From: Asterias amurensis
Taxonomy: Eukaryota
Length of the DNA: 64,000 nt
Assembly: GCF_032118995.1 (NCBI RefSeq)
Contig: NC_092652.1
Coordinates: forward strand, 15,752,336 to 15,816,335
Direction: 5' to 3'
The notes under the pieces were generated by a model, which worked only from the letters and a program-made list of their open reading frames with translations, had not been told where the DNA came from and searched no databases. This document shows positions 3,678-59,833 of the stretch, one piece after another. Made by a program: the position numbers and the translations under genes. The number at the start of each line of letters is the position of its first letter. The stretch's first letter is position 1.

Positions 3678-3697
3678 ATGAGTGATGCTGCAAACAG
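3678..3697 (+). CDS. PARP4: PARP4-like exon 1 (coding part, start codon)
   Basis: ATG in gaaaATGa context, donor cag|GTAAGT at 3698; 20 nt + exon2 79 nt keep frame: MSDAANSVWKWGDPAAPGFPEHLYDIAKSAAFQ; tiny overlapping uORF ATG at 3665. Confidence 0.4.
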
Positions 3698-3710
3698 GTA
3701 AGTAATGTAC

Positions 3711-4096
3711 TTAAAGGCATGGACACTATTGGTAATTGTCAGAGACCAGTCTTCTCACCCGGTGTATCTCAACAAATGCATAAAATAACAAACCTGTGAA
3801 AATTTGAGCTCGATTGGTCATCGGAGTTGGGAGAAAATTATGAAAGAAAAAAACACCCTTGTCACACGAAGTTGTGTGCTCTCAGATACTTGATTTCGAG
3901 ACCTCAAGTTCTAAATCTGAGGTCTCGAAATCAAATTTGTGGAAAATTACTTCTTTCTCGAAAACCACGTCACTTCAGAGGGAGCTGTTTCTCACAATGT
4001 TTTGTACTATCAACCTCTCCCCATTACTCTTAAACAATAAAGGTTTTATGCTAATAATTATTTTGAGTAACTACCAATAGTGTCCACTGCCTTAAT
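3711..4096 (+). mobile_element. MITE family A, full copy (in PARP4 intron 1)
   Basis: both TIRs present, flanked by TTAA contexts. Confidence 0.85.
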
Positions 4097-4099
4097 AAA

Positions 4100-4472
4100 G
4101 CCATTGGACACTTTCGGAACATAATTTTGTTTTAAAGTTCACAGATTTACAAATACTTTACAGGGTTTACAGAAGGTAATAGTGAAAGACTTCTCTTGAA
4201 ATATTATTCCATGAAATACTTTACTTTTTGAGAAAACGTTTAAACAATATCAATTCTCGATATCGAGAATTACGGATTTATTTTAAATACATGTCATGAG
4301 ACGGCGAAACGTGCGGAAACAAGGGTGGGTTTTCCCGTTATTTTTCCCGACTCCGATGACCAATTGAGCCTAAAATGTTCACAGGTTTGTTGTTTTATAT
4401 AAGTTGTGATATACGAAGTGTGGACTTTGGACAATACTATTTACCAAAAGTGTCCAATGGCTTCAAGGTATA
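4100..4472 (+). mobile_element. MITE family B copy
   Basis: TIR ccattggacactttcgg...ccaaaagtgtccaatgg; 3-prime portion related to family A (cgactccgatgaccaattgagc...cacaggtttgtt). Confidence 0.7.
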
Positions 4473-12021: not shown

Positions 12022-12380
12022 AAAGCCATTTTACACTTTCGGTACAGAAAAAAAAATCACAGATTTACAAATAATTTATAGGGTTTACAGAAGGTAATGG
12101 TGAAAGACTTCTCTTGAAATATTGTTCCATGAAATGCTTTACTTTTTGAGAAAACATTAAAACAATATCAATTCTCGATAGCGAGAATTACGGATTTATT
12201 TTAAACACATATGTCATGACACGGCGAAACGTGCGGAAACAAGGGTGGGTTTCCCGTTATTTCTCCCGACTCCGATGACCAATTGAGCCTAAATTTTCAC
12301 AGGTTTTTTTTTGTATAGTTCTGATACACGAAGTGTGGGCCTTAGACAATAGTGTTACCGAAAGTGTCCAATCGCTTTAA
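12022..12380 (+). mobile_element. MITE family B copy
   Basis: near-identical to 4100-4472. Confidence 0.7.
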
Positions 12381-12532
12381 GGGGATGCGACTTATTATTT
12401 CAGAAAAAAAACCTTGTGATTTTTGTATTTTACATGAAATACTCAATGCACTCAAAAGGTTTCACAGTATTTGCTTTCACTTTCAGTGCGATACTTCGGC
12501 AGACATCAAAATATATGTGTTTTGTATTACAG

Positions 12533-13925: not shown

Positions 13926-14230
13926 GTAGGTTCCTCATATTATGTTCAAAGTTATATTAAATTCTTAAATATTTGAATTTTCAAACGTTTTTTGCTGTTT
14001 GTTGACACGATTGTTAATTTCTCGTGTAAACAAAATATACATTTCGTAGTTTTGCATATTTAAAACGAAAAGCCAAGAAAAAGTTTAACTGATTTTGACA
14101 CTCAATTATGCACAAACCAAAGTACTGTTTTAGTACCCCCAAAAAGGTGCAATAAACTACGCTTACAATTTTACTTTACATTATGTTTCTTATGTATTTA
14201 TTCCAAACATGACCATCTACCATTTTGCAG

Positions 14231-14414
14231 TAAGGCTCAGCAATACTCACCACCTAGTCAGCAAGCCGGTACCAGACTGATGTTTATCCACACGGTTGCC
14301 TTGGGTAACGTCAAGAAGCTATACAACCATGATTATACTCTCAGTGAGGCACCGAAGGGCCACCACAGCACACACGGCGTCAGCAGTTGTTCTGCACACC
14401 CAAGCGCATTTGAG
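14231..14414 (+). CDS. PARP4: PARP4-like exon, PARP catalytic continuation
   Basis: cattttgcag| acceptor, gag|gtagag donor; ...RLMFIHTVALGNVKKLYNHDYTLSEAPKGHHSTHGV... Confidence 0.7.
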
Positions 14415-14582
14415 GTAGAGTTAGCCTTTTTATGAATTATCTTTTTACGCATGCGTACAGACCCTTTTGGTTTACAAACGGTATGTAACTGTGATAAAAT
14501 GTAATGAGGTCAGTTGAACAACATTTCATGATAAATTCTACCCCAACAAGCCACATTTTCTAGGAATACAGCAGTTGCTAAA

Positions 14583-14792
14583 TTATAATTCCTTTAAAGG
14601 AACACGTTGCCTTGGATCGGTCGAGTTGGTCTTTGAAAAGCGTTTGTAACCATTTGTTATAAAATGCATATGGAAAGATGTTGTAAAAGTAGAATACAAT
14701 GATCCACACAAACATGCCTCGAAATTGCACGGTTTTCCTTTTACTTTGTCGACAAACACGGTCGGCCATTTATGGGGACTCCCATAAATGGA
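14583..14792. mobile_element. Foldback element, half copy
   Basis: ttaaaggaacacgttgccttggatcggtcgagttggtc...ggccatttatgggg.cccataaatgg central palindrome. Confidence 0.65.
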
Positions 14793-15103
14793 AAATAACA
14801 AACCTATGAAAATGAGCTCGATTGGTCGTCGAAGTTGTGAGATAATAATGAAAGAAAAACACCCTTGCCACACGAAGTTGTGTGCTCTCTTTCAGATGCT
14901 TGATTTTTTTCGTGAACTCAAAATCTAGTTCTGAAATCAAATTCGTGGAAAAGTACACCTTTCTCGAAAACCCGTTACTTCAGAGGGAGCCGTTTGCTCA
15001 CAGTGGTTTATACTATCAACCTCTCTCCATTGCTCGTTATCAAGTAAGTTGTTATGCTAACAATTTTTTTTGAGTAATTACCAACAGTGTCCATTGCCTT
15101 TAG
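14793..15103 (+). mobile_element. MITE family A, 5-prime-truncated copy abutting a foldback element; 3-prime end forms acceptor of PARP4 exon at 15104
   Basis: ...ccaacagtgtccattgcctttag|GATGACGAG. Confidence 0.8.
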
Positions 15104-15290
15104 GATGACGAGTTTGTTGTATACGAGACGAATCAGCAATGTATCCGCTACCTTGTTGAATTCACCCTGCCAGGAGAAACTGAGGTGGAGATACCTCTCT
15201 GTGAAACTCCTCAGATTGCAGAAGGACCGGAGGAGATGATTCTCTGTAAACAACTCGAGGAGGTTCAAAGTAGTGCTCCAACAGCAATTG
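15104..15290 (+). CDS. PARP4: PARP4-like exon, PARP catalytic C-terminus (DDEFVVYETNQ..YLVEF)
   Basis: acceptor cctttag| formed at 3-prime terminus of MITE-A copy; donor g|gtaatg; DEFVVY..KYLL is PARP catalytic end signature. Confidence 0.75.
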
Positions 15291-15730
15291 GTAATGTGTA
15301 AGACATCAGACAAAAATGTCATAGACTATTCATCAACGTAAACCAGGATTGATTGATCTCGCTGTGCTGTTCTTTCCATGCATTCACAGCACAAATTCAT
15401 TTTGTTTAGATGTTTTTTTTTGTTTTTTTTATGAGAAATGGAAGGCCATTTAAGGCCACTTCTAGGTACAGGTACTGGGTTAAGTCACTATGGTAGCCGC
15501 AGCTACCAACAAATAGTTTTTAATATGCAGCCCCTGGGAACAAAAACCAATGGACCTGCAATGTCAGTTTATCCTGCAATGGGGCATCTGTCAACACCTC
15601 AAGGTTGAATTGGAGACTTTGGCGACCAATTTAGCCTGGGGGTCAGGGAAACTCAGCTGGTTAGTCCGTCAGCGCTTGTATTGGGTGTTGCTGTTGCTAT
15701 GTAACAGAATGCACTTACATGGAAACGTTC

Positions 15731-16015
15731 GTTAAAGACACTCGACACTATTGGTAATTGTCAAAGAACAGTCTTTTCACTTGGTGTATCTCAACATACC
15801 TGTGAAAATTTGAGCTCAATTGGTCGTCGAAGTTGCAAGACAACAATAGAAATTTAAAAAACACCATCGGCCCACGATGGGTGCTTTAAGATGCTTGATT
15901 TCGAGACCACAAAATCTAATTCCGAGGTCTCGAAAACAAATTCGTGGAAAATTACTTCTTTCTCAAAAACGACATCACTCCAGAGGGAGCCGTTTCTCAC
16001 AATATATTATACTAT
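15731..16015 (+). mobile_element. MITE family A copy, 5-prime part (split by LTR retrotransposon insertion)
   Basis: continues at 23094 after the 7078-bp insertion; junction tatactat|LTR. Confidence 0.85.
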
Positions 16016-16962
16016 TGTAACGAAATGGTACCGCGCGGTGGCGCTCCAGGCTTAGCGCGAGAGTAGGCGCCCTTAGCGCGCGAAAAGGCGGTTTGGCGCG
16101 GCGCTGGCTGCCGCGGGGCATTTTGGGAAGCACGCTGCTGCCTCGTGCGTGGGGAGTGCGTAGCGGGCAGTTGCAGACTGGACAGCGGATGGTACAGACG
16201 TGTTTTCAATAGTGGTGTTTAACAATTGGCGGGGAGGATTAAGGCGGCGACGTGACTAGCGTGTTCACGTGTCGGGAGTAGTAGCAGGGCTAGCGTGGGG
16301 AGTTTTGGGAGTTGCGGTGCGTGCTGCTGACAGTTGTGTAACCGAGGGGTAGGTTTCATTGGATTATTTTCTGTGTTATTTATGGCAAGTTGGACGTAGA
16401 GACGTGCGATAATCCACTCCCGTAAGGAGGTCACATTGCATTGTATTGTTTGCTCTGGAGTCCGAGATTCTATCAGGCCCTTAAGGCATATTCTATTGTG
16501 TATTGTATTGGTTGCTCGGAGTTCGGGATTTTATCAGGCCCTAAAGGCAGCTTTGGTTTTACTGTAAATGCAGTTCAGTTACTTTAAGTTAGTTCCAGTT
16601 ACCTTAAGGGATTTTCCAGTTGCTTAAGGGATTACCAGTTACTTAAGGGATTTCGGTGACCTTAAGTTTAGTCAGTTGCCTTAAGGGACCATTTCTGGCC
16701 TTAAGTAAAGGAAGATTGCGTAGTTGGAATCAGGAATTACTGTGCTTTCGTAGGGATAATAAATAAAACGGATCAATAGTCAATCAGTAACTTGTCTCAG
16801 CCCTCACTCCTTGGAAGTCAACAGTTTCTTACAGTTTCTAGACCCCTTCCCCCACGTTTTTATTACATGCGGCGATATACGGTTGCCTAACGACCTCACC
16901 CCAAGTGCCAGCAGGACTACCGCTCGTCCTGTGCTGGTGACCACCAGACGGGAATCGCTACA
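16016..16962 (+). repeat. 5-prime LTR (947 bp)
   Basis: identical to 22147-23093 except about 3 substitutions (near 16062, 16364, 16573); contains tandem 20-bp CCTTAAGGGAT-type subrepeats. Confidence 0.9.
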
Positions 16963-16980
16963 TTGGTGTCAGAAGTGGGA
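16963..16980 (+). other. Putative primer binding site (TTGGTGTCAGAAGTGGGA)
   Basis: begins TGG immediately 3-prime of the 5-prime LTR. Confidence 0.4.
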
Positions 16981-17035
16981 TTTGCTGTAATTTTTGTGGG
17001 AGACAGGGTTATTCTAGAGCTGTATAACGGACTGC

Positions 17036-18292
17036 ATGATGGACCGGATGGATTCAAGGGCAATGGAGGAGGAGTTGGAGGTGCTTCGGATGGAGGTTCA
17101 TACAGCCGAAAATATAGTCGAGGATGCTGTCGAGGCCAGGCGGGTAATGGAGGAGGAGTTGCGCAGGATGCGTATGCAACACGCAGAGATGGAAGAGAGA
17201 CATAAGTCGGGCAGGGTCCTTGGAGCCCCTACGCCAGACATGTTTTTCAGCACTCCGAGTCCTGTGGTTTCCGGTACACTTAGGGACACCTCAGGAGCAG
17301 GATTCACACCTGCAAACACAGTTGCAGACACAGAATTCACAAGAGAACAGGAGGTGGGACGTAAGGAGGATGCGACTACTACCAGCCCCAAGGTGGACAG
17401 ACCTCGAAAACCGAACATTTGCCCGGATCGTTTCAATGGGAAGGTTCCTTGGAATGACTACAAGGCTCATTTCCGAGCTTGCTGCGTGGCGAATGCCTGG
17501 AGTGACGAGCAGGCGGTCGTGTTTCTCGCTGCCAGCCTCCAAGGGCAAGCGTTAAAGGTGCTGAGATGCCAGCCGGAGGGGAAGAAGTCGTCGCTTAAGG
17601 ACTTGATGCTCCGTCTGGACCAGAGATTTGGCCCGGGCCAACAAGCAGATTTCCATATGATGGAGGTGAGGCACCGTCGGCAGGGCGAAGTGGAAACACT
17701 GCAGGAGCTAGGGACGAGCATAAGGGAGCTATCTGCATTGGCCTACCCGGAATTCTCCGACGATAGCCGGGAACGGTTGGCTAAGGGACATTTCATGGAT
17801 GCGGTCAAGGACCGGGAGATTAGGGAAGGGATATTCCGGGTAAGCCCAACCTCTTTAGATGACGCCATTAGGGCCGCTCTGCAGACAGAAAGTTTCCTTC
17901 GGACAGAGGAACATAGGACCAATGGGAGGGGGAGAAAGTTTGCAAGGGTTGTTGCAGGAGGAGAGGACGAGGTCTCTCTGCAGGGTCTACAAGGAGAGTT
18001 AAGGGCCACTCAGGATCGCATGTCTAAGGCTTTGGGTGGAATACATGCCATGTTGGAGGACCTGTCACGTTCTAAGGGGGATTACCAGTCGGCAGTTCCA
18101 CGGGGAAGGTCAAGTGCAGACTATGCCTGTTACAACTGTGGCAAAAAGGGTCACTTCGCGAGGGAATGTTCTGAGCCGAGAAGGGAAAGGAGCTGGCAGT
18201 CGGGAAACGCTACCCAGCCAACCGTGGGGCCCAATGGAAGGCTGGAAATGGAGGAAGGACACAAAGAAACTTCCAAGGAGGGCCAGTGCTAG
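17036..18292 (+). CDS. gag: Gag polyprotein (418 aa) with capsid-like region and CCHC zinc knuckle
   Basis: ORF track; CYNCGKKGHFARECSE zinc knuckle; retrotransposon-gag-like FNGKVPWNDYKAHFRACCVANAWSDEQ; N-terminal Glu/Arg-rich coiled-coil-like stretch. Confidence 0.85.
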   Translation: MMDRMDSRAMEEELEVLRMEVHTAENIVEDAVEARRVMEEELRRMRMQHAEMEERHKSGRVLGAPTPDMFFSTPSPVVSGTLRDTSGAGFTPANTVADTEFTREQEVGRKEDATTTSPKVDRPRKPNICPDRFNGKVPWNDYKAHFRACCVANAWSDEQAVVFLAASLQGQALKVLRCQPEGKKSSLKDLMLRLDQRFGPGQQADFHMMEVRHRRQGEVETLQELGTSIRELSALAYPEFSDDSRERLAKGHFMDAVKDREIREGIFRVSPTSLDDAIRAALQTESFLRTEEHRTNGRGRKFARVVAGGEDEVSLQGLQGELRATQDRMSKALGGIHAMLEDLSRSKGDYQSAVPRGRSSADYACYNCGKKGHFARECSEPRRERSWQSGNATQPTVGPNGRLEMEEGHKETSKEGQC

Positions 18293-20484
18293 GAATGTAT
18301 AACCAAGGGATAACGCTCTCAGGGAAGAGTTCGAATATGGCAGGGCTATATGTGACCGCTCAGGTACGAGGAGTAAAAACACAGATGTTAATCGACACAG
18401 GTGCGTCAAACACGGTGCTGTCAGCAGCAGTTTACTATCAAATGGCTCCGGAGGGGAGACCTTCACTGAATACGAGGGGAGCGAAGTTGTACGGGGCGGA
18501 TGGTAGCTCCATAGAGACTATTGGCGGAGCATTGATGGAGATCCAGGTTGGCAAGACAACCCTCCCGGTACATGTGATATTTGCAAAATTGGATTTGGAG
18601 GGGATATTAGGAATGGACTTTCTCCTGCCTACAAATGGACGACTGGACTTCAAGGACATGGTGTTGACCCTGAATGGAGAACGAATAAGGTGCCAGAACG
18701 GTCAGGGTGCGAACGTTTGTGCACAGTGTGGAATGGAAGGACCGGACCTGGGTGGCCAGTTGCGCAAGTCAGGAGGAAGTGAAGGGATAGTGCCTGTACC
18801 GGATAGCGATGAAGGAGATAGTGGCCCTGCAGGAAAGGCTGAGGAAGCCAAAGCTGATTTGCGCGCCGTGGGTGTACTACCCCAAATAACCAAGGCCGAC
18901 TGGAGGGAGGCACAGCTTAGGGAAAGCTCTATGGAGTGGGTCATCAAGGCTAAGGAGGCCGAGGTACCCAGGCCAGACTGGGAGACAGTGTCAGTAACAT
19001 CCAGTGCAAGCAAGAACTATTGGCTACGATGGGAGCAGCTACTTGTTCGCGACGGCGTACTACAGCGTCGGTGGGAGTCTCACAATGGAAAGCAAACGCA
19101 GTGGCAAACCTTGGTACCTCAGGAGCTCCGAGGAGAGATATTGCATGAGCTCCACGCAGGAAGGCTGAGTGGACACTTAGGAACCAAGCGAACAATGGCG
19201 AAGGTGCACGGCAAGTTCTATTGGCAAGGGATGGCTGCAGACATAAGGTCCTTCATCCGAGAGTGTGATGTGTGTGCTAGGAGGAAGTCCCCCAACAAAA
19301 AGAGAAGGGCCCCTTTACAGCAACACCTAGTGGGAATTCCGATGGAGCGAGTAGCGATGGACATTACAGGACCCTTCCCAGTGACGAAGAATGGCAATCG
19401 TTACATACTTGTGATTGGGGACTACTTCAGTAAGTGGTTCGAAGCCTACCCCATTCCAGATGAGAAGGCAGAGACTGTTGCGGACAAGTTCGTCAAGGAG
19501 TTCGTGTGCAGGTTCGGCGTGCCTAAAACACTGCATACCGACCAAGGGAGAAATTTCGAGTCGAGGCTCATGGCCGAGGTGTGCAGAACGCTTGGGATTG
19601 AAAAGACCAGGACCACCCCCTACAACCCCAAGTCTGACGGAATGGTTGAGAGGTTTAACCGCACCCTGGTTAATATCGTAGCCATGCTGATGAAAGAACA
19701 AGCAAACAATAAGGACTGGGACGAGGAGTTGCCTTATGCGACGGCTGCTTACCGCAGCACACCACAAGAGTCCACTGGGGAAACCCCAAACATGCTGATG
19801 CTCGGTAGGGAAGTCTCTCTGCCCCTTGATTTGACAGTGGAGGAGCCCCCTGCAGGCGACGCAGATGGGAAGGAGGAGCGGGACTATGCCCAAGTGGTGC
19901 GTGAGAGAATGCAGGGCGCACATGAAAGGGCTAGAGCACGCTCGAAGAAAAGTGCAAGACGTCAGAAACAAAACTATGACAAGGGGACCAGCGAGGGCAA
20001 CTTTGCTGAAGGCACGTTCGCCTGGTTGTTCAACCCAGCGAAGAAGAAGGGGGTGTCACCCAAGTTGATGTGTAGGTGGGAAGGACCCTACCTTGTAGTA
20101 AACAGGCTGTCGGACGTAACCTTAAGGATACAAAGGAAGCCTGGAGGGAAAACGAAGGTTGTTCACTGTGACCGCCTTAAGCCGTATCAAGGTGCACCCT
20201 TACAGCCTTGGATGTCAGATGCAGACGAAGGGACGCAGGCCCTGCAGGGGCAACCCGCAGGAGATATCCCGGTGGATGATGCATCCCAGGTGGAAGTGAT
20301 TAATAGCCCGATGCCAGCGGGCCAGGTAGAACCAGAGACACCTGAAGGTGACCGGGAATCCTCTGAAGATATGGGCCATGCGGATCCTGCTCAGGTATCT
20401 AGACCCTTAGACATGACACCGTTGCCTGCACAGGCGAGACGGAATCCGTTGCGCCAGCGGAGGCCGCCACAGCGGTATCTGTAA
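18286..20484 (+). CDS. pol: Pol (732 aa) = aspartic protease + integrase only; no reverse transcriptase/RNase H
   Basis: -1 frame relative to gag with 7-nt overlap; LIDTGASNTV and GILGMDFL protease motifs; H-x3-H...C-x2-C zinc finger (HELHAGRLSGH...CDVCARRK); integrase D (VAMDITGPFP), D (LHTDQGRNFES), E (MVERFNRTL); GPY/F tail (WEGPYLVVNRL); no YxDD motif anywhere. Confidence 0.85.
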   Translation: MLGMYNQGITLSGKSSNMAGLYVTAQVRGVKTQMLIDTGASNTVLSAAVYYQMAPEGRPSLNTRGAKLYGADGSSIETIGGALMEIQVGKTTLPVHVIFAKLDLEGILGMDFLLPTNGRLDFKDMVLTLNGERIRCQNGQGANVCAQCGMEGPDLGGQLRKSGGSEGIVPVPDSDEGDSGPAGKAEEAKADLRAVGVLPQITKADWREAQLRESSMEWVIKAKEAEVPRPDWETVSVTSSASKNYWLRWEQLLVRDGVLQRRWESHNGKQTQWQTLVPQELRGEILHELHAGRLSGHLGTKRTMAKVHGKFYWQGMAADIRSFIRECDVCARRKSPNKKRRAPLQQHLVGIPMERVAMDITGPFPVTKNGNRYILVIGDYFSKWFEAYPIPDEKAETVADKFVKEFVCRFGVPKTLHTDQGRNFESRLMAEVCRTLGIEKTRTTPYNPKSDGMVERFNRTLVNIVAMLMKEQANNKDWDEELPYATAAYRSTPQESTGETPNMLMLGREVSLPLDLTVEEPPAGDADGKEERDYAQVVRERMQGAHERARARSKKSARRQKQNYDKGTSEGNFAEGTFAWLFNPAKKKGVSPKLMCRWEGPYLVVNRLSDVTLRIQRKPGGKTKVVHCDRLKPYQGAPLQPWMSDADEGTQALQGQPAGDIPVDDASQVEVINSPMPAGQVEPETPEGDRESSEDMGHADPAQVSRPLDMTPLPAQARRNPLRQRRPPQRYL

Positions 20485-20631
20485 TTAATTAGCTCTGGAG
20501 TATTGGGGGGATCGATTGTATGGTACTAGGACAACAAAGGCGTAACGTAGGAGTAGCAAACCAGTATGGGGGTAACTGCAGTGAAGTAACTGTTGCTTTG
20601 TTTGTTCTTTTTCTTTACAGTATAAAGGAGG

Positions 20632-21651
20632 ATGGAGGACCAAGAGCCAGGATGGAAGAGACCGAAGGACTGGGATAAGATGAAGCTATACGCATGTTCG
20701 GAGTGTGACGACACCTTCGTGAGCAAGAAGAGTCTTGAGACCCATCTGGGGACTCACACCACCAAGAAGAAGATCCTGTACTTCTGCAAGAGGTGTGACA
20801 GGAGATATACAAGGAAAGACAACCTGAAGGTTCACTATACCAACCACCACCCTGCAGGGATGCAGGACCTGGATACGCTGTACCCAGAAACGGAGGAAGA
20901 ACGGAGAGCTGCTAGTTCCCCAGGAGACGATGTGGATGTTCCGGGTGATTCCCCTGCCCCCTCGGGACGCAAGAGGAAGGAAACGGAGGTGACCAATCCC
21001 AGACCCAGAAAGGAGTCCAGGAAGAGGAGAGAGTGCACCGAGAAAACCAGGGAGCCACAGAAGGAAGAGGAATCGGCTGAGGAGACGCAGCTCCCCTCAA
21101 CTCCTGGGAGGAACCGGGTGATACAGGAAACGGCGGAACTGTCCTTGTCGCCAGCGTCAGTTTCCTTACTGGAAGAGGCGGGTCCTCGGCGCCGGGTAGT
21201 CCATGGAGGGAAACCTCGGGGTATGATTTCGATGATGAAGGATGCCCAGGAAGAGGGTACTGACGAGGAAGGAGTGGAGGACAACAACGACGCTCCTTTG
21301 TCCATTAATCTGGGGCGAGCACTAAAGGGAAGCACCCTACGATACAACGAAGGAGACCTGCAACAACACGTCTTTCAACCAGCTCAGGGTGTTCGACACG
21401 GGCTGGGACAAGCCGCACCGGTAGAGGAACCACCACAGGCGAGAGTGTGCCGGATCAATCGAGGCAACCCGGGGTGGCGAAAAGCAGTGCCACTTGATAC
21501 TGCTGACCTGGAGGTGATGATGGCTGGAAACGTCCGTAAGGTGAGAGAAGTCAACACAAGAAGCCAGTTTCAGAATGGCCTCAAGATCTCCGAAGAGGTC
21601 GTCGAGCGGACATACGACGTGCAGTTCACGGCAGGGTTTATCCTCAAGTAG
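20632..21651 (+). CDS. ORF3 (339 aa) C2H2 zinc-finger protein in env position of the LTR element
   Basis: two C2H2 fingers (YACSECDDTFVSKKSLETHLGTH; YFCKRCDRRYTRKDNLKVHYTNHH), then acidic/Ser-Pro-rich low complexity and a C-terminal ~100 aa unique region; intact ORF. Confidence 0.7.
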   Translation: MEDQEPGWKRPKDWDKMKLYACSECDDTFVSKKSLETHLGTHTTKKKILYFCKRCDRRYTRKDNLKVHYTNHHPAGMQDLDTLYPETEEERRAASSPGDDVDVPGDSPAPSGRKRKETEVTNPRPRKESRKRRECTEKTREPQKEEESAEETQLPSTPGRNRVIQETAELSLSPASVSLLEEAGPRRRVVHGGKPRGMISMMKDAQEEGTDEEGVEDNNDAPLSINLGRALKGSTLRYNEGDLQQHVFQPAQGVRHGLGQAAPVEEPPQARVCRINRGNPGWRKAVPLDTADLEVMMAGNVRKVREVNTRSQFQNGLKISEEVVERTYDVQFTAGFILK

Positions 21652-22134
21652 TTGTAGTCCACTTTAGGCTCGTTTTTACTAAAGCGTTACTTGTTTATAA
21701 CCTTGTTTTCTTTCAGTATAAAAGTTGTCTAAGAGAGTATATTTTGATAACAGATCTTGCCTTTGTAATCTTGTGTAATTCCCTTAAGGATTAGGTTACG
21801 AATTTGGATTGTATAACGTGATTGTGTTATGATTGGATTTGATTTGTATAAACTCCCTTAAGGAGACATTGTGATTTTTGAAATGTGTTTTACTTAAAGT
21901 TCCCTTTAGGAGCATTAGCAGACTCTTGCCTTAAAGTGTGTAAACCTCCCTTAAGGAGGCATTGTGATAACTTATTGTTTAAGCTCCCTTAAGGGGCCCC
22001 TTTGTTACTTAAAGGTGTCCGGCAGGTGCATTGTGGTGTATAAAATAACTATTTCTCTGTATAAATTTGTAAGCACCTTGAGGTACATTTCGTTTTTAGG
22101 GTATCAGTTTTACGGACCGGGTGGTCCTAACTTA

Positions 22135-22146
22135 AGTGGGGGGCTG
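22135..22146 (+). other. Putative polypurine tract (AAGTGGGGGGCT)
   Basis: purine-rich run directly upstream of 3-prime LTR. Confidence 0.45.
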
Positions 22147-23093
22147 TGTAACGAAATGGTACCGCGCGGTGGCGCTCCAGGCTTAGCGCGAGGGTAGGCG
22201 CCCTTAGCGCGCGAAAAGGCGGTTTGGCGCGGCGCTGGCTGCCGCGGGGCATTTTGGGAAGCACGCTGCTGCCTCGTGCGTGGGGAGTGCGTAGCGGGCA
22301 GTTGCAGACTGGACAGCGGATGGTACAGACGTGTTTTCAATAGTGGTGTTTAACAATTGGCGGGGAGGATTAAGGCGGCGACGTGACTAGCGTGTTCACG
22401 TGTCGGGAGTAGTAGCAGGGCTAGCGTGGGGAGTTTTGGGAGTTGCGGTGCGTGCTGCTGACAGTTGTGTAACCGAGGGGTAGGTTTTATTGGATTATTT
22501 TCTGTGTTATTTATGGCAAGTTGGACGTAGAGACGTGCGATAATCCACTCCCGTAAGGAGGTCACATTGCATTGTATTGTTTGCTCTGGAGTCCGAGATT
22601 CTATCAGGCCCTTAAGGCATATTCTATTGTGTATTGTATTGGTTGCTCGGAGTTCGGGATTTTATCAGGCCCTAAAGGCAGCTTTGGTTTTACTGTAAAT
22701 GCGGTTCAGTTACTTTAAGTTAGTTCCAGTTACCTTAAGGGATTTTCCAGTTGCTTAAGGGATTACCAGTTACTTAAGGGATTTCGGTGACCTTAAGTTT
22801 AGTCAGTTGCCTTAAGGGACCATTTCTGGCCTTAAGTAAAGGAAGATTGCGTAGTTGGAATCAGGAATTACTGTGCTTTCGTAGGGATAATAAATAAAAC
22901 GGATCAATAGTCAATCAGTAACTTGTCTCAGCCCTCACTCCTTGGAAGTCAACAGTTTCTTACAGTTTCTAGACCCCTTCCCCCACGTTTTTATTACATG
23001 CGGCGATATACGGTTGCCTAACGACCTCACCCCAAGTGCCAGCAGGACTACCGCTCGTCCTGTGCTGGTGACCACCAGACGGGAATCGCTACA
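22147..23093 (+). repeat. 3-prime LTR (947 bp)
   Basis: direct repeat of 16016-16962, starts TGTAACG ends GCTACA. Confidence 0.9.
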
Positions 23094-23193
23094 CTATTAA
23101 CAGTTCCCCGTTACTCATTACCAAGCAAGGTTTTATGCTAACACTTATTTTGAGTAGTTAATACTGATAATTTCACTGTCCACTGCCTTTAAA
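23094..23193 (+). mobile_element. MITE family A copy, 3-prime part (after LTR element)
   Basis: ctattaacagttccccgttactcattaccaagcaaggttttatgctaacacttattttgagtag...cactgcctttaaa. Confidence 0.85.
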
Positions 23194-23199
23194 CACCAG

Positions 23200-23336
23200 A
23201 TCTCAGTGATGTAGAATATGCAAAAGATCCCGTAGTAGACGTTGAAATCGGCCTCGTCAGTCAAAATGAAATATCAGACTCAATCACCCTACAAGCTGTA
23301 CACGTCAGAGCAAAACTACTGGATCTAGTGGCTGAG
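23200..23336 (+). CDS. PARP4: PARP4-like exon (start of VIT domain region)
   Basis: acceptor aaacaccag| 6 bp after MITE-A end; phase 1 matches exon ending 15290; donor gag|gtaagg. Confidence 0.6.
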
Positions 23337-24924: not shown

Positions 24925-25330
24925 ATGGATTCTTACCCACACAAAATTCGAAAAGGCGGTAACAAAAAGGATACAGGATTCCCGGTGGGATTCTGGCACG
25001 ATTCCGCCAGGAATCCCGCCGTTTTGCGGGATTCTGGCATGATAACTTGCGAGAGAATTGGATGAATTTTTCGGGAGTCGGGATTTTGGTAGGGTTCCAG
25101 CTTGATTTTTGCGGGATCCTGAAGAGATTTTCATGGAATCCCGGTTAATCCAACTGGAACCCTGGTTAATCCAATCGAAATTCCGGTTGGTTCCGGCAAA
25201 ATCTCGGTTATTCCGACTGGAATCCCGGTAAAGCCCAGTTATCTAATCAACCGGAATCCCGGTTGATCCAACTGGAATCCCAGTTTATCCTATCAAAATC
25301 CCGGACAGTATCGTCGGAATCTTGTTTAAT
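24925..25330. repeat. Satellite-like degenerate tandem repeat (AATCCCGGTTRATCCAACTGG family)
   Basis: many ggaatcccggttaatccaactgg variants; same family as 33250-34110. Confidence 0.7.
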
Positions 25331-25682
25331 CCGTGTGTTTGTGTTTTAATCCCAAATAAAGGTAGACATCTACAACAAACTACCTTTCCTACACTTGAGA
25401 GGTAATTCTATCTGAGCGTTGAAAATTTGACACACTAAAAGCACACCCGGTGTTTGACCATTACGTTAGACTACAGGACACCTATTTTGGTTCCTGTTGT
25501 TCCTGTATTGAAGCAATCCCTATTGGAATGGTTTTGTACACAAATGACTAGTGAGGACCCATGAAAACAATGAACCGACTAGTGAGGACCTATTGTCCCT
25601 ATTGAAAAGTGTCCTCAGAGGGTAGGCCATACAAACACATTTCTTAAAGGTGATGTTTTTGATGTTTGGATTTCTTTCTCAG

Positions 25683-33249: not shown

Positions 33250-34110
33250 ACTGATGGCAATCCTGGTTGATCCCGGTAGAATCGCACATAATCCAACCAG
33301 ACTCCCAGTTAAAACCAGTAGTAAACAAACCAAGGGATTCAGGTTAATATCATCTGGATCCCGCAGTTTAATCCAACCGGAATCGTGGTTTATTCCAGCA
33401 AAATCCAAGTTATTCCAACCAGAATCACAGTTAAAAAACAGTAAACTAACCAAGTGGGATTCGGGATTCACCTGGATCCCCAGTTAATCCAACCGGAATC
33501 CTGGTTTATTCCAGCGGAATCCAAGTTATTCCAACCAGAATCCCAGTTAAAACCAGTAAACTAAACAAGTAGGATTCGGGATTCACCTGGATCCCCAGTT
33601 AATCCAACCGGAATCCTGGTTTATTCCAGCGGAATCCAAGTTATTCCAACCAGAATCCCAGTTAAAACTAGTAAACTAACCAAGTGGGATTCGGGATTCA
33701 TCTGGATCCCCAGTTAAGCCAGCCGGAATCTCTGTTCATCCAACCGAAAACACGGTTGATCATGGTTAATCCAAAGGGATCCCACTAGGAAATTGGACGG
33801 AATCCTAGTTTAATTCAGCCGAATTCCTTGTTTATCCCAGCGGAATCCCAGTTAATCCAACCGGAACCCCTGTTAGAATCAGTCAACTTACCAACTGGGA
33901 TTCAGGTTAAATTAATCCGGATAATCCAACTGAAAGTCTCAGTCCTCCAACCGAAATCCCGGCTGATCCAATTCCAGTTAAATCCAATGGAATCCCACCT
34001 GGAGTTTGGATGGAATGGTAGTTAATCCATCCGTAACCCCGGTTAAAACTATTAACCCAACCAACCAGGATTCCTGTTAAATTCATCTGTAACCCCAGAA
34101 AAATTCAACC
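33250..34110. repeat. Satellite array, ~120-bp unit x3 perfect plus degenerate flanks
   Basis: unit cagttaatccaaccggaatcctggtttattccagcggaatccaagttattccaaccagaatcccagttaaaaccagtaaactaa.caagt.ggattcgggattcacctggatcccc at 33380, 33500, 33620. Confidence 0.8.
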
Positions 34111-40999: not shown

Positions 41000-41560
41000 G
41001 CCCTTATGGGGCATCCTTACTGTAGATCGATGTAGACAAATTGCCAAAGTTTGGCATAATGTATATCAAAGTAGACATTGCCCTTATGGGGCATACTTTC
41101 TATCGATGTAGACAAATTGCCAAAGGTCGGCACAATGTATATCAAATGGGGCGTACTGTGTATCAATGTAGACAAACTGCCAAAGTTCGGCATGCATATG
41201 TATATCAATGTAGACAAATTGCCCTATTGGGGCGTATGCAAGTCAATGTAGACAAGTTGCCCAAGTTCGGGCATAATGTGGACAAGTTGCCCAAGTTCGG
41301 GCATAATGTGGACAAGTTGCCCAAGTTCGGGCATAATGTGGACAAGTTGCCCAAGTTCGGGCATAATGTGGACAAGTTGCCCAAGTTCGGGCATAATTGT
41401 GATATCAGTGTAGACAAGTTGCCCAAGTTGGGCCTTATACCAATGTGGACAGGTTGCCCATCCAATTTGGGCATACGATATCAATGTAGACAAATGGGTC
41501 AATACCCAAGTGGTGCATAATATTATGTATATCGATGTAAACAAATACTAATAGTGGGGA
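41000..41560. repeat. Minisatellite; core of 5 perfect 30-bp units (GTGGACAAGTTGCCCAAGTTCGGGCATAAT) flanked by 40-60-bp variants
   Basis: 41248-41397 perfect copies. Confidence 0.85.
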
Positions 41561-41839
41561 ATTATGTCATTTCGGGCAAGTTGCAGGGAAAATACCAATC
41601 TGGACAAATTGCTCAAGCAGGGTGTCAATTAATACTATCGTATCAGCAGAACAAACAACGATCACAGGCTTGAAACAAAGTCTTTAGTCTACAGGCTATT
41701 TGAATAATTCTTATATTTTAGAGGCTGAATTGTTGTGTTTTGAATATTATTGTGATGATTATATTGTGTATGGAATACATTTTTTTAGTATAAATATATG
41801 TTGTTATTCTTGACTTGAACAATCCAACGGATTAATAAT

Positions 41840-44800
41840 TAAGAGTCAGTTCAGGTAAATAATTGACATAGTTGCTCACGGTCAAAAAATGAATTTTTTT
41901 TAGACTTTGTGGGTGGAAGGGCCTTGGGGTGCAAGTAAACAAAATTGCATTTTTAATTCCATATATAGCCCGTTGCCATGGTTACAGCTCATTTTGTTTT
42001 TAGGCCATTTTAGGCCGATTTTGAGGTCTGAAAAACGGGTTTTTAGCTCATATTTACAACTCCACCCCACCAAAATGCAAAATCATTTCAAAAAACCTTT
42101 TATATCATTACAAAGTATCATCCTTGGCCTTCCTTGAGAAAAAAAATTATTGCTTTAAATATCACCCTTGTGCTATTTTTGCATCATGCATTACAGTATG
42201 GTTTTTGAACTTGCAAAATCGACATTTTTACCCTATTTTTGGACCCCAAAATGTCAACTTGCCAGGGGTCTCAGAAAACTCTCCTTTCGGCTGTGATTAG
42301 GGCAAACATTGGTCTTTCCATATCTGGTGTCAAAAACTTGGGCAATTGTATCCTGTTGTGACAGTACTGCCTCAAAACTAGACTTTTTTCCCCAAAACGT
42401 GAAAAATGCCTTTTTAAGGGTCTTTTCACATAATATCGACATACGTGTCCACGGTAAAAAAAAGGCATATTTTTCTTATACTTTGTGGATGGTAGGGACT
42501 TGGGGTCCAAATAAACAGCATTAACATTTCAAATCATAATATAACACGTTGCCATGGTAACCGTTCATTTGTGTTTAGGCCACTTTAGTCCAATTTTGGG
42601 GTCTGAAAAAACTTTTTTTTAGTTATTATTTACAACTCCACCCCACCAAAATCAAAAATATTTCATAAAACTTTTTCCATCACTACAAAGTATCATCCTT
42701 GGCTTTACTTGGGACAAAAAAAATTGCTATAAAATTCACCGTTTTGTTATTTTTGGAACATGCATTAGAATATGTTTTTAGAACTTGCAAAATCAACAAT
42801 TTTTACCATATTTTTGTGCCTCAAAATTTCATTTTTTTCAGGGGTCTCAGAATATTTTCCTTTCAGTTTTGATCAGGTCCAAAATTTGTCCTTTTTTTTC
42901 GGGTAGAAAAACTTGGGCAAGTGTATCCAGATGTTAACAGTACTGTCTCAAAAATAGACAGAAAAATGCATTTTAAATTGTTTTTTTTCTTCATCATGAA
43001 TTTTGAACATTAAAAAGTAATAATTCTATCAATCTTGCAGCTTTTCCTAAGCACTCTATAGGCTTAGTGGATTACCCAACATTGATCAGGAACGATTGAT
43101 GACCTTAATTTGAGAATTTGCCCCGGCCCAGCCCCAATCATATATCTTGACATTGCATAAAACAATGTTTTGTGAATAGCGCCTCTTTTTTGTAAAGTGT
43201 TCCCTTTCGGTTGTATTGGTATTTTCATGCCTTCTGGGTAGAAACACTGTGTTTATTGTATCCTGTTGTGACTGATCATGCCTTAAGTATAGTAAGTTTT
43301 CCCAAAACAATGCATGCTTGTTAAAAATCTGGCACTGTTTCCATGCCCTTTGAGTAATGAATACAAAGTTTGTATTTAAACATAATGGTATCCAACAAAA
43401 CCATAACCAATGCTTTGCCACTGAGAGTTCTTGATTTGGCTACTTTACCTATTGTACAGGTATGATTCCCATTGCAAGTAGAGTGCGATGAGCATTCTCT
43501 ACAAGTTGTCTTTAATACAGGGCCTACTCACCTTGGTCCCTGCCTGCTACCAATTGTAAAACTTTTCATAGAGATAGAGATCATAAACAATGTAGTTTCT
43601 GTGCTTGGGGCAGATGGTTTGGAGCATCCAATCATGTCCAACACAAATGTGGGAAATTAAAAAGCCTGCTTAAAAGTGTTGGAAAAGTTTGCCAAGATCT
43701 TATTAAAAACAATGATACTAACGATTTGCATGACGAGCGTAAGATATCATTTAAAAGGAACACGTTGCCAGGGATCGGTCAAGTTGGTCTTTGAAATGCG
43801 TTTGTAACCGCTTGTTATAAAATGCATGGTTAGAAAGATGTTTTTGAGTGATACTTGTCTGGATCATTATACTCTACTTTTAAAATATCTTTCTAATCAT
43901 ATGCATTTTGTAATAAACGTTTACAAACGCTTTTCAAAGACCAACTCGACCGACCCAAGGCAACGTGTGTTCCTTTAATGAAACAACACGGATAGAAGTT
44001 GTAAATACTTGAACCTGCTCAACATAAGTAAGTAAGATGCATTTGCAGTGACAAAAGTTTATTCGGCTAGTTTGATTATTTTTTCCATTCACTATTTTAC
44101 TAGTTCATAATTAGCATATATGTCTCTGAGAACGATCAACAAAAAACATTGTCAAACATTACCTGCTGAACTCTTTTATTGTTTGCAACAGTACAATTGA
44201 AAGGAACCCCACCATGGTTGGGGGAACTGCTTACAGAAGGCCAAAGCAGTTGAATTTGGACACAGTACTTGCTCACTTTTAGAGCCTCTTTGTTCTGATA
44301 GGGATGAAAATGTTTAGTTTGGTAGCGGGCAGGGGACCAAGAAGACTGTTAAAAGGCCATGTACAAATGTATAGACAAGAATAGTAAAGAATGCTCATCG
44401 CACTACTTCTCTTCTTGCAATGTGAATCATACCTGTACAACTAGGTAAAGTAGTCATGACAAAACAAGAACTCTCAGTGGCAAAGCTTGGTTATAATTTT
44501 TGTATATGTTACCTTAAGAATATGGAAACAGTGCCATATTTTTTTAACAAGCATGCTCGTTTTTGTTTTTTATCAATTCAAACTAAGGGATAACTTCAAA
44601 ATGCATTTTTATTGTTTTTGGAAAAATTACCATGTTTGAGGCAGAAGTGTCACAATAGGATACAATAAACCAAAGTGTTTCTCCCCAGCAGACATGCAAA
44701 CCATAATGATTGCCCAATCACAACCAAAGGGGAAATATTCTGAGGACCAATAATAAATTAAGACAGTACAAACTTTCTTGATGTGCAAGGGAAATTAAAA

Positions 44801-46190
44801 AATGTGACTTTCAAAAAAGAGGCGCTGTTCACAAAACTTTTGTATTTTTTTTATGCAATGTCAAGAAATATGATTGGGCCGGGGCCGGGGCAAATTCTAA
44901 GATTTAGGTCATTAACAAGTCCTGATCAATGTTTGGTAATGCACTAAGCCTACAGAGTGCTTATGACAAGCTGCCAGATTGATGGAATTATTACTAACTT
45001 CTTAAGGTTTTAAATTCAAAATGAAGCAAATATTTCAAAATGCATTTCTCTATGTTTTCGGGGAAAAGGGTTTATTTTTGAGACAGTTCTGTTACATCAG
45101 GATACAATTGCCCGGGTTTGTCTTAAAAGAAATAAAAAGACAAGTTTTGGCCCTGATCAAAACCGAAAGGAAAATATTCTGAGACCCCTGCAAAAATGAA
45201 ATTTTGAGGGCAAAAAATGTGGTAAAAATGTTGATTTTGCAAGTTCTAAAAACATACTCTAATGCACGATCTTAAAACACCACAAGGGTGAAATTTTTAG
45301 CAATAATTTTTTGTCTCAAGTAAAGCCAAGGATGATAATTTGTAGTGATGGAAAAGGTTTTATGAAATATGCTTGTTTGTTGGTGGGGTGGAGTTGTAAA
45401 TATTAACTAAAAAACAGTTTTTCAGACCCCCAAATTGGCCTAAAAACAAACAAACTGTTACCATGGCAACGTGTTATATTATGATTTGAAATGTAAATGC
45501 TGTTTATTTGGACCCCAAGTCCCTACCATCCACAAAGTATAAGAAAAATTTTCCTTTTTTTTTACACGTGGACACGTTTATCGATATTTTGTGAAAAGAC
45601 CCTTAAAAAGGCATTTTTCACGTTTTGGGGAAAAAAGTCTAGTTTTGAGGCAGTACTGTCACAACAGGAAACAATTGCCCAAGTTTTTGACACCAGATAT
45701 GGAAAGACCAGTGTTTGCCCTAATTACAGCCGAAAGGAGAGTTTTCTGAGACCCCTGGCAAGTTGACATTTTGGGGTCCAAAAATAGGGTAAAAATGTCG
45801 ATTTTGCAAGTTCTAAAAACATACTGTAATGCATGATGCAAAAATAGCACAAGGGTGATATTTAAAGCAATAATTTTTTTTCTCAAGGAAGGCCAAGGAT
45901 GATACTTTGTAATGATATAAAAGGTTTTTCGAAATGATTTCGCATTTTGGTGGGGTGGAGTTGTAAATATGAGCTAAAAACCCGTTTTTCAGACCCCAAA
46001 ATCGGCCTAAAATGGCCAAAAAACAAAATGAGCCGTAACCATGGCAACGGGCTATATATGGAATTGAAAATGCAATTTTGTTAACTTGCACCCCAAGGCC
46101 CTTCCACCCACAAAGTATAAAAAAAATTCATTTTTTGACCGTGAGCAACTATGTCAATTATTTACCTGAACTGACTCTTAATTTCACGAA
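41840..46190. repeat. Large imperfect palindrome: inverted arms 41840-43700 and 44230-46190, each with two ~570-bp tandem units
   Basis: right arm is reverse complement of left (e.g. 43086-43140 vs 44860-44940; 41907-42476 vs 45500-46080); foldback MITE in spacer. Confidence 0.8.
43750..43978. mobile_element. Foldback element (short form) at centre of large palindrome
   Basis: arms aaggaacacgttgcc...gaccaactcgaccgacccaaggcaacgtgtgttcctt. Confidence 0.7.
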
Positions 46191-49790: not shown

Positions 49791-50163
49791 TTAAGGAACG
49801 CGTTGCCTTGGATCGGACGAGTTGGTCTATAAAAAGCATTTGTAACCCTTTTTTAAATGCATATGTTTGGAAAGATGTTTTAAAAGTAGAATACAATGAT
49901 CCACACAAGTTTGCCTCGAAATTGCGTGGTTTTCCTTTTACTTTGGGAACTAACACGGTTGGTCAAAAATTTGACTCCCATAAATGGCCGACCGTGTTAG
50001 TCGACGATGTAAAAGGAAAACCGTGCAATTTCGAGGCGTTATTGTGTGGATCATTGTACTCTACTTTTACAACATCTTTCTACTCAAACGCATTTTATAA
50101 CAAACGGTTACAAACGCTTTTCAAAGACCAACTCGACCGATCCAAGGCAAAGTGTTCCTTTAC
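49791..50163. mobile_element. Foldback element, full copy (~180-bp arms)
   Basis: near-perfect palindrome around ggccgaccgtgttag. Confidence 0.8.
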
Positions 50164-55562: not shown

Positions 55563-55950
55563 TTAAAGGAACACGTTGCCTTGGATCGGACGAGTTGGTC
55601 TATAAAATGCGTTTGAAACCGTTTGTTATAAAATGCATAAATGGTTAGAAAGAGGTTTTTAAAGTAGAATATAATGATCCACACAAGTATCACTCGAAAC
55701 TGCACGGTTTTCCTTTTACGTCGCGAACTAACACGGTCGGCCATTTTTGGGAGTCAAAATGTTGACTCCCATAAATGGCCGATCGTGTAAATCGACGAGG
55801 TATAAAGAAAACCACGCAATTTCGAGGCATGTTTGTGTAAATCATTGTATTCTACTTTTACAACATCTTTCTACCCATATGCATTTTATAACAAACGGTT
55901 ACAAATGCTTTTCAAAGACCAACTCGACCGATCCAAGGCAACGTGTTTAA
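55563..55950. mobile_element. Foldback element, full copy
   Basis: same family; flanked by ttaggacgagtaactcgtcctaa-type short palindromes. Confidence 0.8.
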
Positions 55951-58878: not shown

Positions 58879-59172
58879 GCAAAAAGTACGAAGTGTCTTG
58901 TAAGAAGGTACGAAGTATCTTGTTTAGAAGGTACGACGTGTCCAAGGTATACGAACGGTGTCAAAAGTCACTCATATCTGTAATGAAAAATACTAAATAA
59001 ATTCAGAGCATTCCCAGAACCGCTCTTTTAAGATTGACATGTGATCCAGTTTGTACCATTCACACTGGCAACAATGACATTATCATTGTGCCATGTGATC
59101 CGATAATGGATCATGATGGTGTATATTGGACTGGCCGTCATCAGTGTGATCCGAATCCGAGATTAGGAACTT

Positions 59173-59560
59173 TAAAGGCAGTGGACACTATTGGCAATTA
59201 CTCAAAATAATTATTAGCATAAAACCTTTCTTGGTGACGAGTAATGGGGAGAGGTTGATGGTATAAAACATTGTGAGAAACGGCTCCCTCTGAAGTGCCA
59301 TAGTTTTCGAGAAAGAAGTAATTTTCCACGAATTTGATTTCGAGACCTCCGATTTAGAACTTGAGGTCTCGAAATCAACCATCTAAACGCACACAACTTC
59401 GTGTGACAAGGGTGTTTTTTTTCTTTCATTATTATCTCGCAAGTTCGATGACAGATTGAGCTCAAAATTTCACAGGTTTGTTATTTTATGCATATGTTGA
59501 GATACACCAACTGTGAATGCTAGTTTTTGACAAATACCAACAGTGTCCACTGCCTTTAAA
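59173..59560 (-). mobile_element. MITE family A full copy (between CTLD-A and CTLD-B exons)
   Basis: both TIRs. Confidence 0.85.
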
Positions 59561-59612: not shown

Positions 59613-59833
59613 ATGCAGTTCCAAAATGTGACTCGGCAAATGGGTGGAAAAACTACAACGGTATGTGCTACAGACTCTTTACCTACAAAACAACATGGCA
59701 GACGGCTGAAAACGATTGCAAGCTGACACCAGGTGGACATCTAGCTTACGCCAAAACTGCTGACGACCAGGCGTTTTTAGACAACTTGCAATACAGTCAC
59801 GGATACGAGTACTGGCTTGGTCTATCTGATAAG
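59613..59833 (+). CDS. CTLD-B exon 1
   Basis: gttcatatacag| acceptor, aag|gtaact donor; CDSANGWKNYNGMCYRLFTYKTTWQTAENDCKL...AFLDNL..YWLGLSD. Confidence 0.75.

Follow-up and report, generated by a model that had tools for sequence, protein, structure and literature searches.

Can the end of a MITE serve as the 3′ splice region of a conserved exon, and did the element then create that splice site or take over one that already existed? This question is raised by a PARP4 catalytic-domain exon that begins where a MITE copy ends, within a eukaryotic window (the whole stretch of 64 000 nucleotides analysed here) of about 39% G+C that is rich in interspersed repeats. In the sequences given below, slashes mark the boundaries of exons or elements.

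The PARP4 gene and its exon boundary

The best named matches in database searches were PARP4 proteins containing the PARP catalytic and VIT domains (PF00644, PF13757 and PF08487), and a homologue search using a single VIT exon as query retrieved the full-length PARP4 of Branchiostoma, oysters, Mytilus, Diadema, Nematostella, Ciona and others. The best full-length matches were scattered over amphioxus, bivalves, sea urchin and a cnidarian, none of them being close. By tblastn, the PARP4 homologues were collinear with at least 17 open exons between 8.6 and 34.6 kb, without stop codons, and the PARP motifs bearing the H-Y-E residues were located at about 13250 (LFHGS), about 13900 (GIYFA) and 15104 (DDEFVVY). 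We therefore regard the gene, as predicted from its sequence, as an intact orthologue of PARP4 (vault PARP), in which VIT and vWA domains follow the PARP catalytic domain within one gene. Arrays of a unit of approximately 21 nt (GGAATCCCGGTTAATCCAACT-like) were also seen in the PARP4 gene region (25135–25333 and 33259–33884), with 115-nt higher-order repeats at 33318–33874; these arrays lie in introns or in the poorly conserved C-terminal part of PARP4.

The two exons that flank the intron under study are listed in Table 1. Residues 501–563 of Branchiostoma PARP4 aligned with 14226–14414 and residues 564–626 with 15104–15277, no residue being missing or added. The upstream exon, with the end ...GCATTTGAG/GTAGAG, was 77% identical to that of an orthologous contig (L004). 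The third codon of the downstream exon (DDE) encodes the Glu that corresponds to the catalytic one in the H-Y-E triad of PARPs. Only one alternative in-frame AG is available (15111–15112), and its use would delete DDE including the catalytic Glu; given this cost, and the TAG at 15101–15103, the AG at 15102–15103 is taken as the putative acceptor. Exonisation of the MITE was considered and rejected, as the homologue alignment is gapless across 14415/15104, a TAG lies directly upstream of the exon and no MITE sequence is coding.

MITE families A and B at the intron–exon junctions

BLAST searches with one copy of the MITE and then with a consensus detected at least 14 copies of this family (family A) in the window, on both strands. 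From the multiple alignment and the consensus (392 nt, flanks included), the element is approximately 378 bp long with 28-bp terminal inverted repeats (AGGCAGTGGACACTATTGGTAAT... at the 5′ end and ...ATTACCAATAGTGTCCACTGCCT at the 3′ end), and its copies are 77–94% identical to the consensus and contain no long ORF. All nine intact 5′ ends in the window are preceded by TTAA. The claim in the original prediction that other termini of the family end in TTAA held true: nine of the 10 window 3′ ends other than that at 15099 read ...C(A/C)CTGCCT followed by TTAA (the remaining one being degenerate), and a scan of JGI marine metagenomes with the MITE terminus gave seven loci, including five recognisable family A copies, all five with TTAA on their 3′ side. 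Since TTAA stands at both ends while the bases outside it differ between copies, it represents the target-site duplication of family A. Family B is a hairpin-type MITE of about 380 bp which, like family A, starts TTAA/AGG (AGGAACACG...). Two partial copies of a related subfamily were also present (4319–4467 and 12257–12381; 74% identical to the family A consensus over its first ~130–150 bp), with the termini TTGAAGCCATTGGACAC and TTAAAGCGATTGGACAC, which indicates several diverged lineages with a common terminal repeat.

The termini of family A (TTAA/AGG...CCT/TTAA), whose TTAA/AGG start recurs in family B, match those of Kolobok/T2-type MITEs, the type to which we would assign both on sequence. 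These elements, i.e. Xmix of Xenopus and its relatives, have a TTAA target-site duplication and a terminal repeat with AG or AGGRR adjoining the TTAA (PMC6004289). Family B, which starts AGGAA, is an exact fit to AGGRR, whereas in family A (AGGCA) the AGG fits and the fourth base is C instead of a purine (PMC6004289). Like the T2 elements, the families described here are short, non-coding and high-copy, with subfamilies that have common termini (PMC6004289). The T2 hosts in that study are frogs, in contrast to the marine invertebrate host here, and no splice-site role was described there for T2 MITEs (PMC6004289). A piggyBac-type assignment of family A was rejected, for the hallmark of that type is a terminal CC[C/T]T beside TTAA (PMC2872659); TTAA is present in family A, but AGG.../...CCT has the reverse polarity of CCYT.../...ARGG.

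Several further features were noted elsewhere in the window. A tandem repeat with a 30-nt unit (AATGTGGACAAGTTGCCCAAGTTCGGGCAT) in about seven copies occupies 41215–41427, and two inverted repeats of 627 nt (41837–42463 and 45557–46183; 97% complementary, 3.1 kb apart) possibly belong to a larger DNA transposon with long terminal inverted repeats. An open frame at 59613–59800 (DAVPKCDSANGWKNYNGMCYRLFTYKTTWQTAENDCKLTPGGHLAY...) resembles, on visual inspection, an exon for a C-type lectin domain, probably of a different gene, with a likely acceptor (tcatatacag/) some 50 nt downstream of the MITE copy at 59171–59559; no Pfam match at E ≤ 0.001 was obtained for this piece of 62 amino acids.

The original prediction had a MITE copy ending exactly where the exon DDEFVVYE begins, and we confirmed this together with its coordinates (14792–15099, TTAG, exon from 15104). 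In a BLAST search with the family consensus, 14792–15102 corresponded to consensus 75–387 at 85.8% identity; the terminus of the copy reads ...CCATTGCCT at 15099 and the junction reads ...accaacagtgtccattgcct/ttag/GATGACGAG. As the other family A 3′ ends read TTAA, the G at 15103 is particular to this copy. The copy is without its first ~72 bp and is fused at 14791/14792 to the left arm of a family B element, and the intron (688 nt) comprises 178 nt of ancestral sequence at its 5′ end and MITE sequence from 14598 up to the AG. At 14% from the consensus, compared with 6–9% for most family A copies, this copy is older than most of its family. A search for the chimeric B/A junction in the fetched loci found it in none of them. 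Microhomology as the basis of the fusion was examined and dismissed: CATAAA occurs near the junction in both parents, but out of register.

Table 1. Positions of the gene and transposon features discussed in the text (numbered from the first nucleotide of the window).
Feature	Position	Strand	Details
PARP4 catalytic-domain exon	14231–14415	+	Ends ...HGVSSCSAHPSAFE, phase 0; donor GTAGAG at 14416; tblastn
Ancestral 5′ intron remnant	14416–14593	+	Aligns with first ~190 nt of the L004 intron
TTAA at left edge of the B/A composite	14594–14597	+	L004 counterpart is TTTTAC
Family B left arm, broken off at central loop	14598–14791	+	Terminus AGGAACACG...; 81–92% identical to full B arms
Family A MITE, 3′ 308 bp	14792–15099	+	Consensus 75–384; right terminal inverted repeat ends ...ACCAACAGTGTCCATTGCCT; aligned with 13 other copies
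Branch-point-like CTAAC and T8, both within the MITE	15057–15071	+	CTAAC 15057–15061; T8 15064–15071
TTAG where the TTAA target-site duplication is expected	15100–15103	+	AG 15102–15103, putative acceptor dinucleotide; in-frame TAG 15101–15103
PARP4 exon with catalytic Glu	15104–15290	+	DDEFVVYETNQQCIRYLVEF...; donor GTAATG at 15291; tblastn, orthologous exon in L001–L003
Family A second copy, 5′ part	15732–16015	+	TTAA 15732–15735; broken at consensus ~302
LTR element nested in the second copy	16016–23093	+	7.08 kb; ~946-bp LTRs with ≤10 differences; CTAT(T) direct repeat flanks
Family A second copy, 3′ part	23098–23192	+	Right terminal repeat to 23188; TTAA 23189–23192
PARP4 exon, preceded by intron bases ACACCAG (23193–23199)	23200–23336	+	DLSDVEYAKDP...LLDLVAE; tblastn
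Full family B copies	49793–50162, 55563–55947, 43751–43978

Within the MITE, CTAAC and the run of eight T residues sit 33–47 nt upstream of the exon and are followed by the pyrimidine-rich terminal repeat ...TGTCCATTGCCTTT. CTAAC is the only match to yTnAy in the last 60 nt of the intron (...gttatgCTAACaaTTTTTTTTgagtaattaccaacagtgtccattgcctttAG/), offers a candidate branch A at 15060 (44 nt upstream of the exon) and is taken as the putative branch point. Because the intron beyond its first 178 nt is all MITE, a branch point at a normal distance from the AG must be in the MITE. The pyrimidine fraction between −20 and −4 was 0.65 at both MITE-flanked acceptors, the median over the 17 acceptors of the gene being 0.59. 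These observations support the reading that the pyrimidine tract of the present acceptor is MITE sequence, and the branch point would be likewise. The family A consensus itself has CTAAT, a T-rich run, the same terminal tract and a CCTTTAA end, one transition away from CCTTTAG. Over the last 45 nt the copy at 14792 carries five substitutions relative to the consensus, none reducing the pyrimidine content, and three changes are directed toward a stronger 3′ splice region (CTAAT to CTAAC; A to T plus an extra T, giving T8; and A to G, giving the AG). A strengthening of the 3′ splice region in this copy is only suggested by these substitutions, which are few, with CTAAC also found in other copies. 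RNA folding of the whole intron gave z = −1.0 against shuffled sequences, i.e. a stability not above that of the shuffles.

A second copy had been placed 6 bp upstream of the acceptor of exon 23200 in the original prediction. Such a copy is present (15736–16015 plus ~23098–23188, with TTAA intact on both sides), but the distance needs amending, the TTAA end being 5 nt from the AG and 7 nt from the exon. This second copy shows that family A is able to insert within an acceptor region. Both acceptor-side copies are old (14–16% diverged), and the LTR element that interrupts the second is young. Among the ORFs of the LTR element we found a gag zinc knuckle, an aspartyl protease and an integrase, and no match to reverse transcriptase or RNase H; an extra ORF (20632–21651) encodes 339 amino acids with C2H2 zinc fingers. 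The region of the LTR element explains the rise of G+C to 51–53% at 16–22 kb.

Ancestry of the intron and origin of its present 3′ end

A search with the exon peptide returned three short environmental contigs, L001 (TARA), L002 (GCA_014845345.1) and L003 (SOLA metagenome), in which the exon is 74%, 83% and 87.6% identical to that of the window, respectively, and begins at the same codon. The acceptors read ...gtaattacag/GATGAT in L003 (ccgtaattacag/), ...ccattacag/GATGAT in L002 (ctgtccattacag/) and ...gcattggcag/GACGAT in L001, and no MITE adjoins any of the three. No family A sequence was detected within the 660 bp upstream of the L002 exon. In L003, a family A 3′ end lies 108 nt upstream of the orthologous acceptor (L003 1–99; window counterpart 15007–15101), and is explained either by a separate insertion into the same ~110-nt stretch at the end of the intron or by an orthologous copy in its pre-deletion state. 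Informative exon sites gave the tree ((window, L003), L002), L001, from which it follows that the acceptor state of the window is derived. The last ~70 intron bases of L002 and L003 are alike (score 45 versus 29 ± 4 for shuffles), so this common segment is ancestral for the window lineage too, and no match to the ancestral acceptor-proximal segment of L002 or L003 was found in the window intron. Contig L004, obtained from the L003 sample, covers the upstream exon together with at least 770 bp of intron sequence. In the bivalve Solemya velum, PARP4 has an intron at the same place and in phase 0 (...CAGTTCAAG/gtgagc ... tcacag/GATGATGAA). A scan of JGI metagenomes with the exon start for further orthologous junctions returned none.

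On these comparisons, the intron and its 3′ boundary are ancient and were not created by the MITE, and the original branch-point/pyrimidine-tract segment is gone from this genome. The original prediction had the acceptor AG and the pyrimidine tract contributed by the element terminus or its target site: the tract is indeed MITE sequence and the AG stands at the duplication position, but the site as such is ancestral, as seen in L001–L003 and Solemya. MITE-less orthologues with an identical acceptor had been named as the sign that the element merely inserted beside an older site. The orthologues found have the same boundary and no adjoining MITE, but their acceptor sequence differs; an identical one was not found because the ancestral acceptor-proximal sequence has been physically replaced in the window. 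What had been called co-option of the MITE is better described as a replacement that was passive, the incoming terminus being already similar to a 3′ splice region.

The last 30–40 intron bases remain alike (TTTTGA..CCG..CATT.CAG) in L001 (1–40), L002 (630–661) and L003 (175–208), which hints at a constraint on the ancestral intron end, kept even in L001 with its exon identity of 74%. The possibility that the L002 and L003 intron ends (TTTTGAGTA...TGTCCATT) are relics of a MITE terminus was discarded: the local alignment was not significant against shuffles (P values of 0.03–0.1), and orthologous copies would not have diverged so unequally. A clean insertion right at the acceptor, considered when the flank at 14560–14597 had been aligned with the ancestral acceptor-proximal segment, was likewise discarded, as L004 places this flank only ~190 nt into the intron.

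The intron being ancient, we consider it probable that, after the split from the L003/L004 taxon, the terminus of a Kolobok/T2-type MITE replaced its acceptor-proximal segment. A family A element would have inserted in the last few nucleotides of the intron, like the neighbouring copy at 23189, and a change of 1–3 nt would then have given TTAG. A later rearrangement would have joined the family B left arm to position 75 of the 14792 copy, removing the left end of the A element along with the ancestral 3′ intron segment, by then dispensable. Such an insertion may have been tolerated in a usually forbidden zone because the terminus was pre-adapted, already resembling a 3′ splice region; this would be a passive replacement, with no new splice site. 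The divergence of the copy (14% versus 6–9%) fits an insertion at about the time of the separation from the L003 taxon or shortly thereafter. With its left end, the 14792 copy has lost the record of its original target site, and the ancestral acceptor, ATTACAG, is without a TTAA, so that direct insertion requires a non-canonical target or an extra small change.

Direct insertion, to which we give somewhat better than even chances, was weighted above a route by insertion at an ordinary TTAA ~100 nt upstream and subsequent deletion joining ...GCCTTTA to G/GATGAC, which we judge to be rather unlikely, the order of events being reconstructed in both cases. One breakpoint of this deletion would lie exactly at the element terminus, as expected of transposase cleavage or abortive excision, and an L003-like ...CTGCCTTT(A) joined to (A)G/GAT would give the window sequence exactly. 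The family A 3′ end near the L003 acceptor could belong to the orthologous copy, but over 95 bp the window and L003 copies share no differences from the consensus, and the L003 copy is the less diverged of the two (~5 versus ~11 differences). The age of the window copy (14% off consensus) is about that of the sister-taxon split, the copy is already rearranged on its left side and the ancestral acceptor has no TTAA, all of which would suit a deletion; however, the deletion must end exactly so that the AG stays in phase, and the copy at 23189 proves direct insertion within 11 nt of an exon. The G at 15103 would be a mutated base of the duplication under the first route and an ancestral base brought in by the deletion under the second. 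Under either route, the acceptor region is MITE-derived.

Three other explanations depart further from replacement of an ancestral 3′ intron end by a MITE terminus. Intron gain of the introner type, in which the MITE created the intron with one splice site of its own and the other from the target-site duplication, would account for an AG at the duplication position, as in Micromonas introners (PMC11282704), and for splice-site-like termini (TTAAAG/GCAGTG... 5′ and ...CCTTTAA 3′), but is extremely improbable given the same intron position in three relatives without a MITE there and in a bivalve, and the 178 nt of ancestral non-MITE sequence that was kept, with the intron's own GT donor. Repeats are dense in the region and the copy is a B/A chimera, as might be expected if repeat collapse or a mis-join in the assembly had made a false MITE/exon junction; this is very unlikely, since the junction sequence is unique, with a copy-specific G and many private substitutions, and a mis-join would hardly restore a phase-0 AG at a conserved boundary. 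As the 64 kb contain at least 14 copies, some termini are to be expected near exons, and the adjacency might also be incidental, the splicing signals lying elsewhere or PARP4 decaying, with the terminus neutral. We find this improbable: the conserved exons are all open and collinear with PARP4 homologues, a TAG is located directly upstream of 15104 with the catalytic Glu three codons into the exon, and the intron after its first 178 nt is entirely MITE, so that a branch point at a normal distance from the AG must be there.

A post hoc enrichment estimate can be made from the annotated gene part (8.6–34.6 kb, LTR element left out). Approximately four of its 161 TTAA sites lie ≤12 nt upstream of one of the 17 acceptors, and the probability that at least two of six Kolobok-type insertions fall at acceptors is about 0.01, a value obtained post hoc from one gene and two cases. 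At most, these numbers suggest that insertions favour T-rich intron ends or that copies differ in their survival. The left end of family A (AAG/GCAGTG) is one transition from a GT donor, and the pyrimidine tract at the right end is one transition from YAG. That the MITE family is generally splice-compatible, persisting at or inserting into intron 3′ ends by preference genome-wide and so renewing the acceptor regions of old introns time and again, and even an incipient metazoan introner, we regard as doubtful.

A donor-like CAG/GTAAGT (3697–3712) was observed 8 nt upstream of the TTAA of the MITE copy at 3709–4099, at the end of a short ORF that starts ATGAGTGATGCTGCAAACAG. No homology support was found for this ORF as a PARP4 exon; should PARP4 coding begin with it, the number of family A termini near splice sites would rise to three, this one near a donor.

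Comparison with known systems

In Alu exonisation, the poly-T of an antisense Alu together with an AG is used as a 3′ splice site, often after one point mutation, and repeat sequence is put into the mRNA, usually as a minor alternative exon. In PARP4 the repeat would also give the pyrimidine tract and the acceptor, whereas the repeat adds nothing to the coding sequence and the exon is conserved and presumably constitutive. Introners, described from Micromonas, Aureococcus, dinoflagellates and Fritillaria, are MITE-like elements in which the terminus and the target-site duplication provide a splice site (PMC11282704). They may be seen as the closest mechanistic analogue of the acceptor at 15103/15104, which likewise combines a MITE-like terminus with a 3′ AG at the duplication position (positions 3–4 of TTAG). 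Introners, however, create new introns at non-conserved positions, the element being the intron, whereas in this case the intron with its donor and its first 178 nt goes back to the ancestor, the replacement being confined to the 3′ signals.

Transposon-derived splice signals are a known kind of event, of which this locus is a new example and not a conceptually new one. It offers a clean comparative demonstration with a second instance in the adjacent intron and, as a single locus, is an instructive example rather than a discovery. Were the pattern general in the genome, the ordinary intronic MITEs of an animal would thereby be connected with introner biology, and a sequence rule (TTAA/AGG...CCT/TTAA) for splice-compatible transposon families would be available.

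In mammals, transposable elements, including DNA transposons, are under-represented within 50–100 bp of exons, and it is at acceptors that disease-causing insertions concentrate (PMC3088655); such insertions disturb splicing and are subject to negative selection. In canine PMEL (merle), a SINE at the intron 10/exon 11 boundary disturbs splicing, and this case resembles ours in having a transposable element directly at an intron/exon boundary as part of the definition of the 3′ splice site (PMC7349775). Unlike PMEL and the mammalian cases, two old copies persist at acceptors of an intact PARP4 and have therefore been tolerated. The locus shows how an insertion in the acceptor zone may be harmless, where the terminus is branch-point- and pyrimidine-tract-like and the target site is one base from AG.
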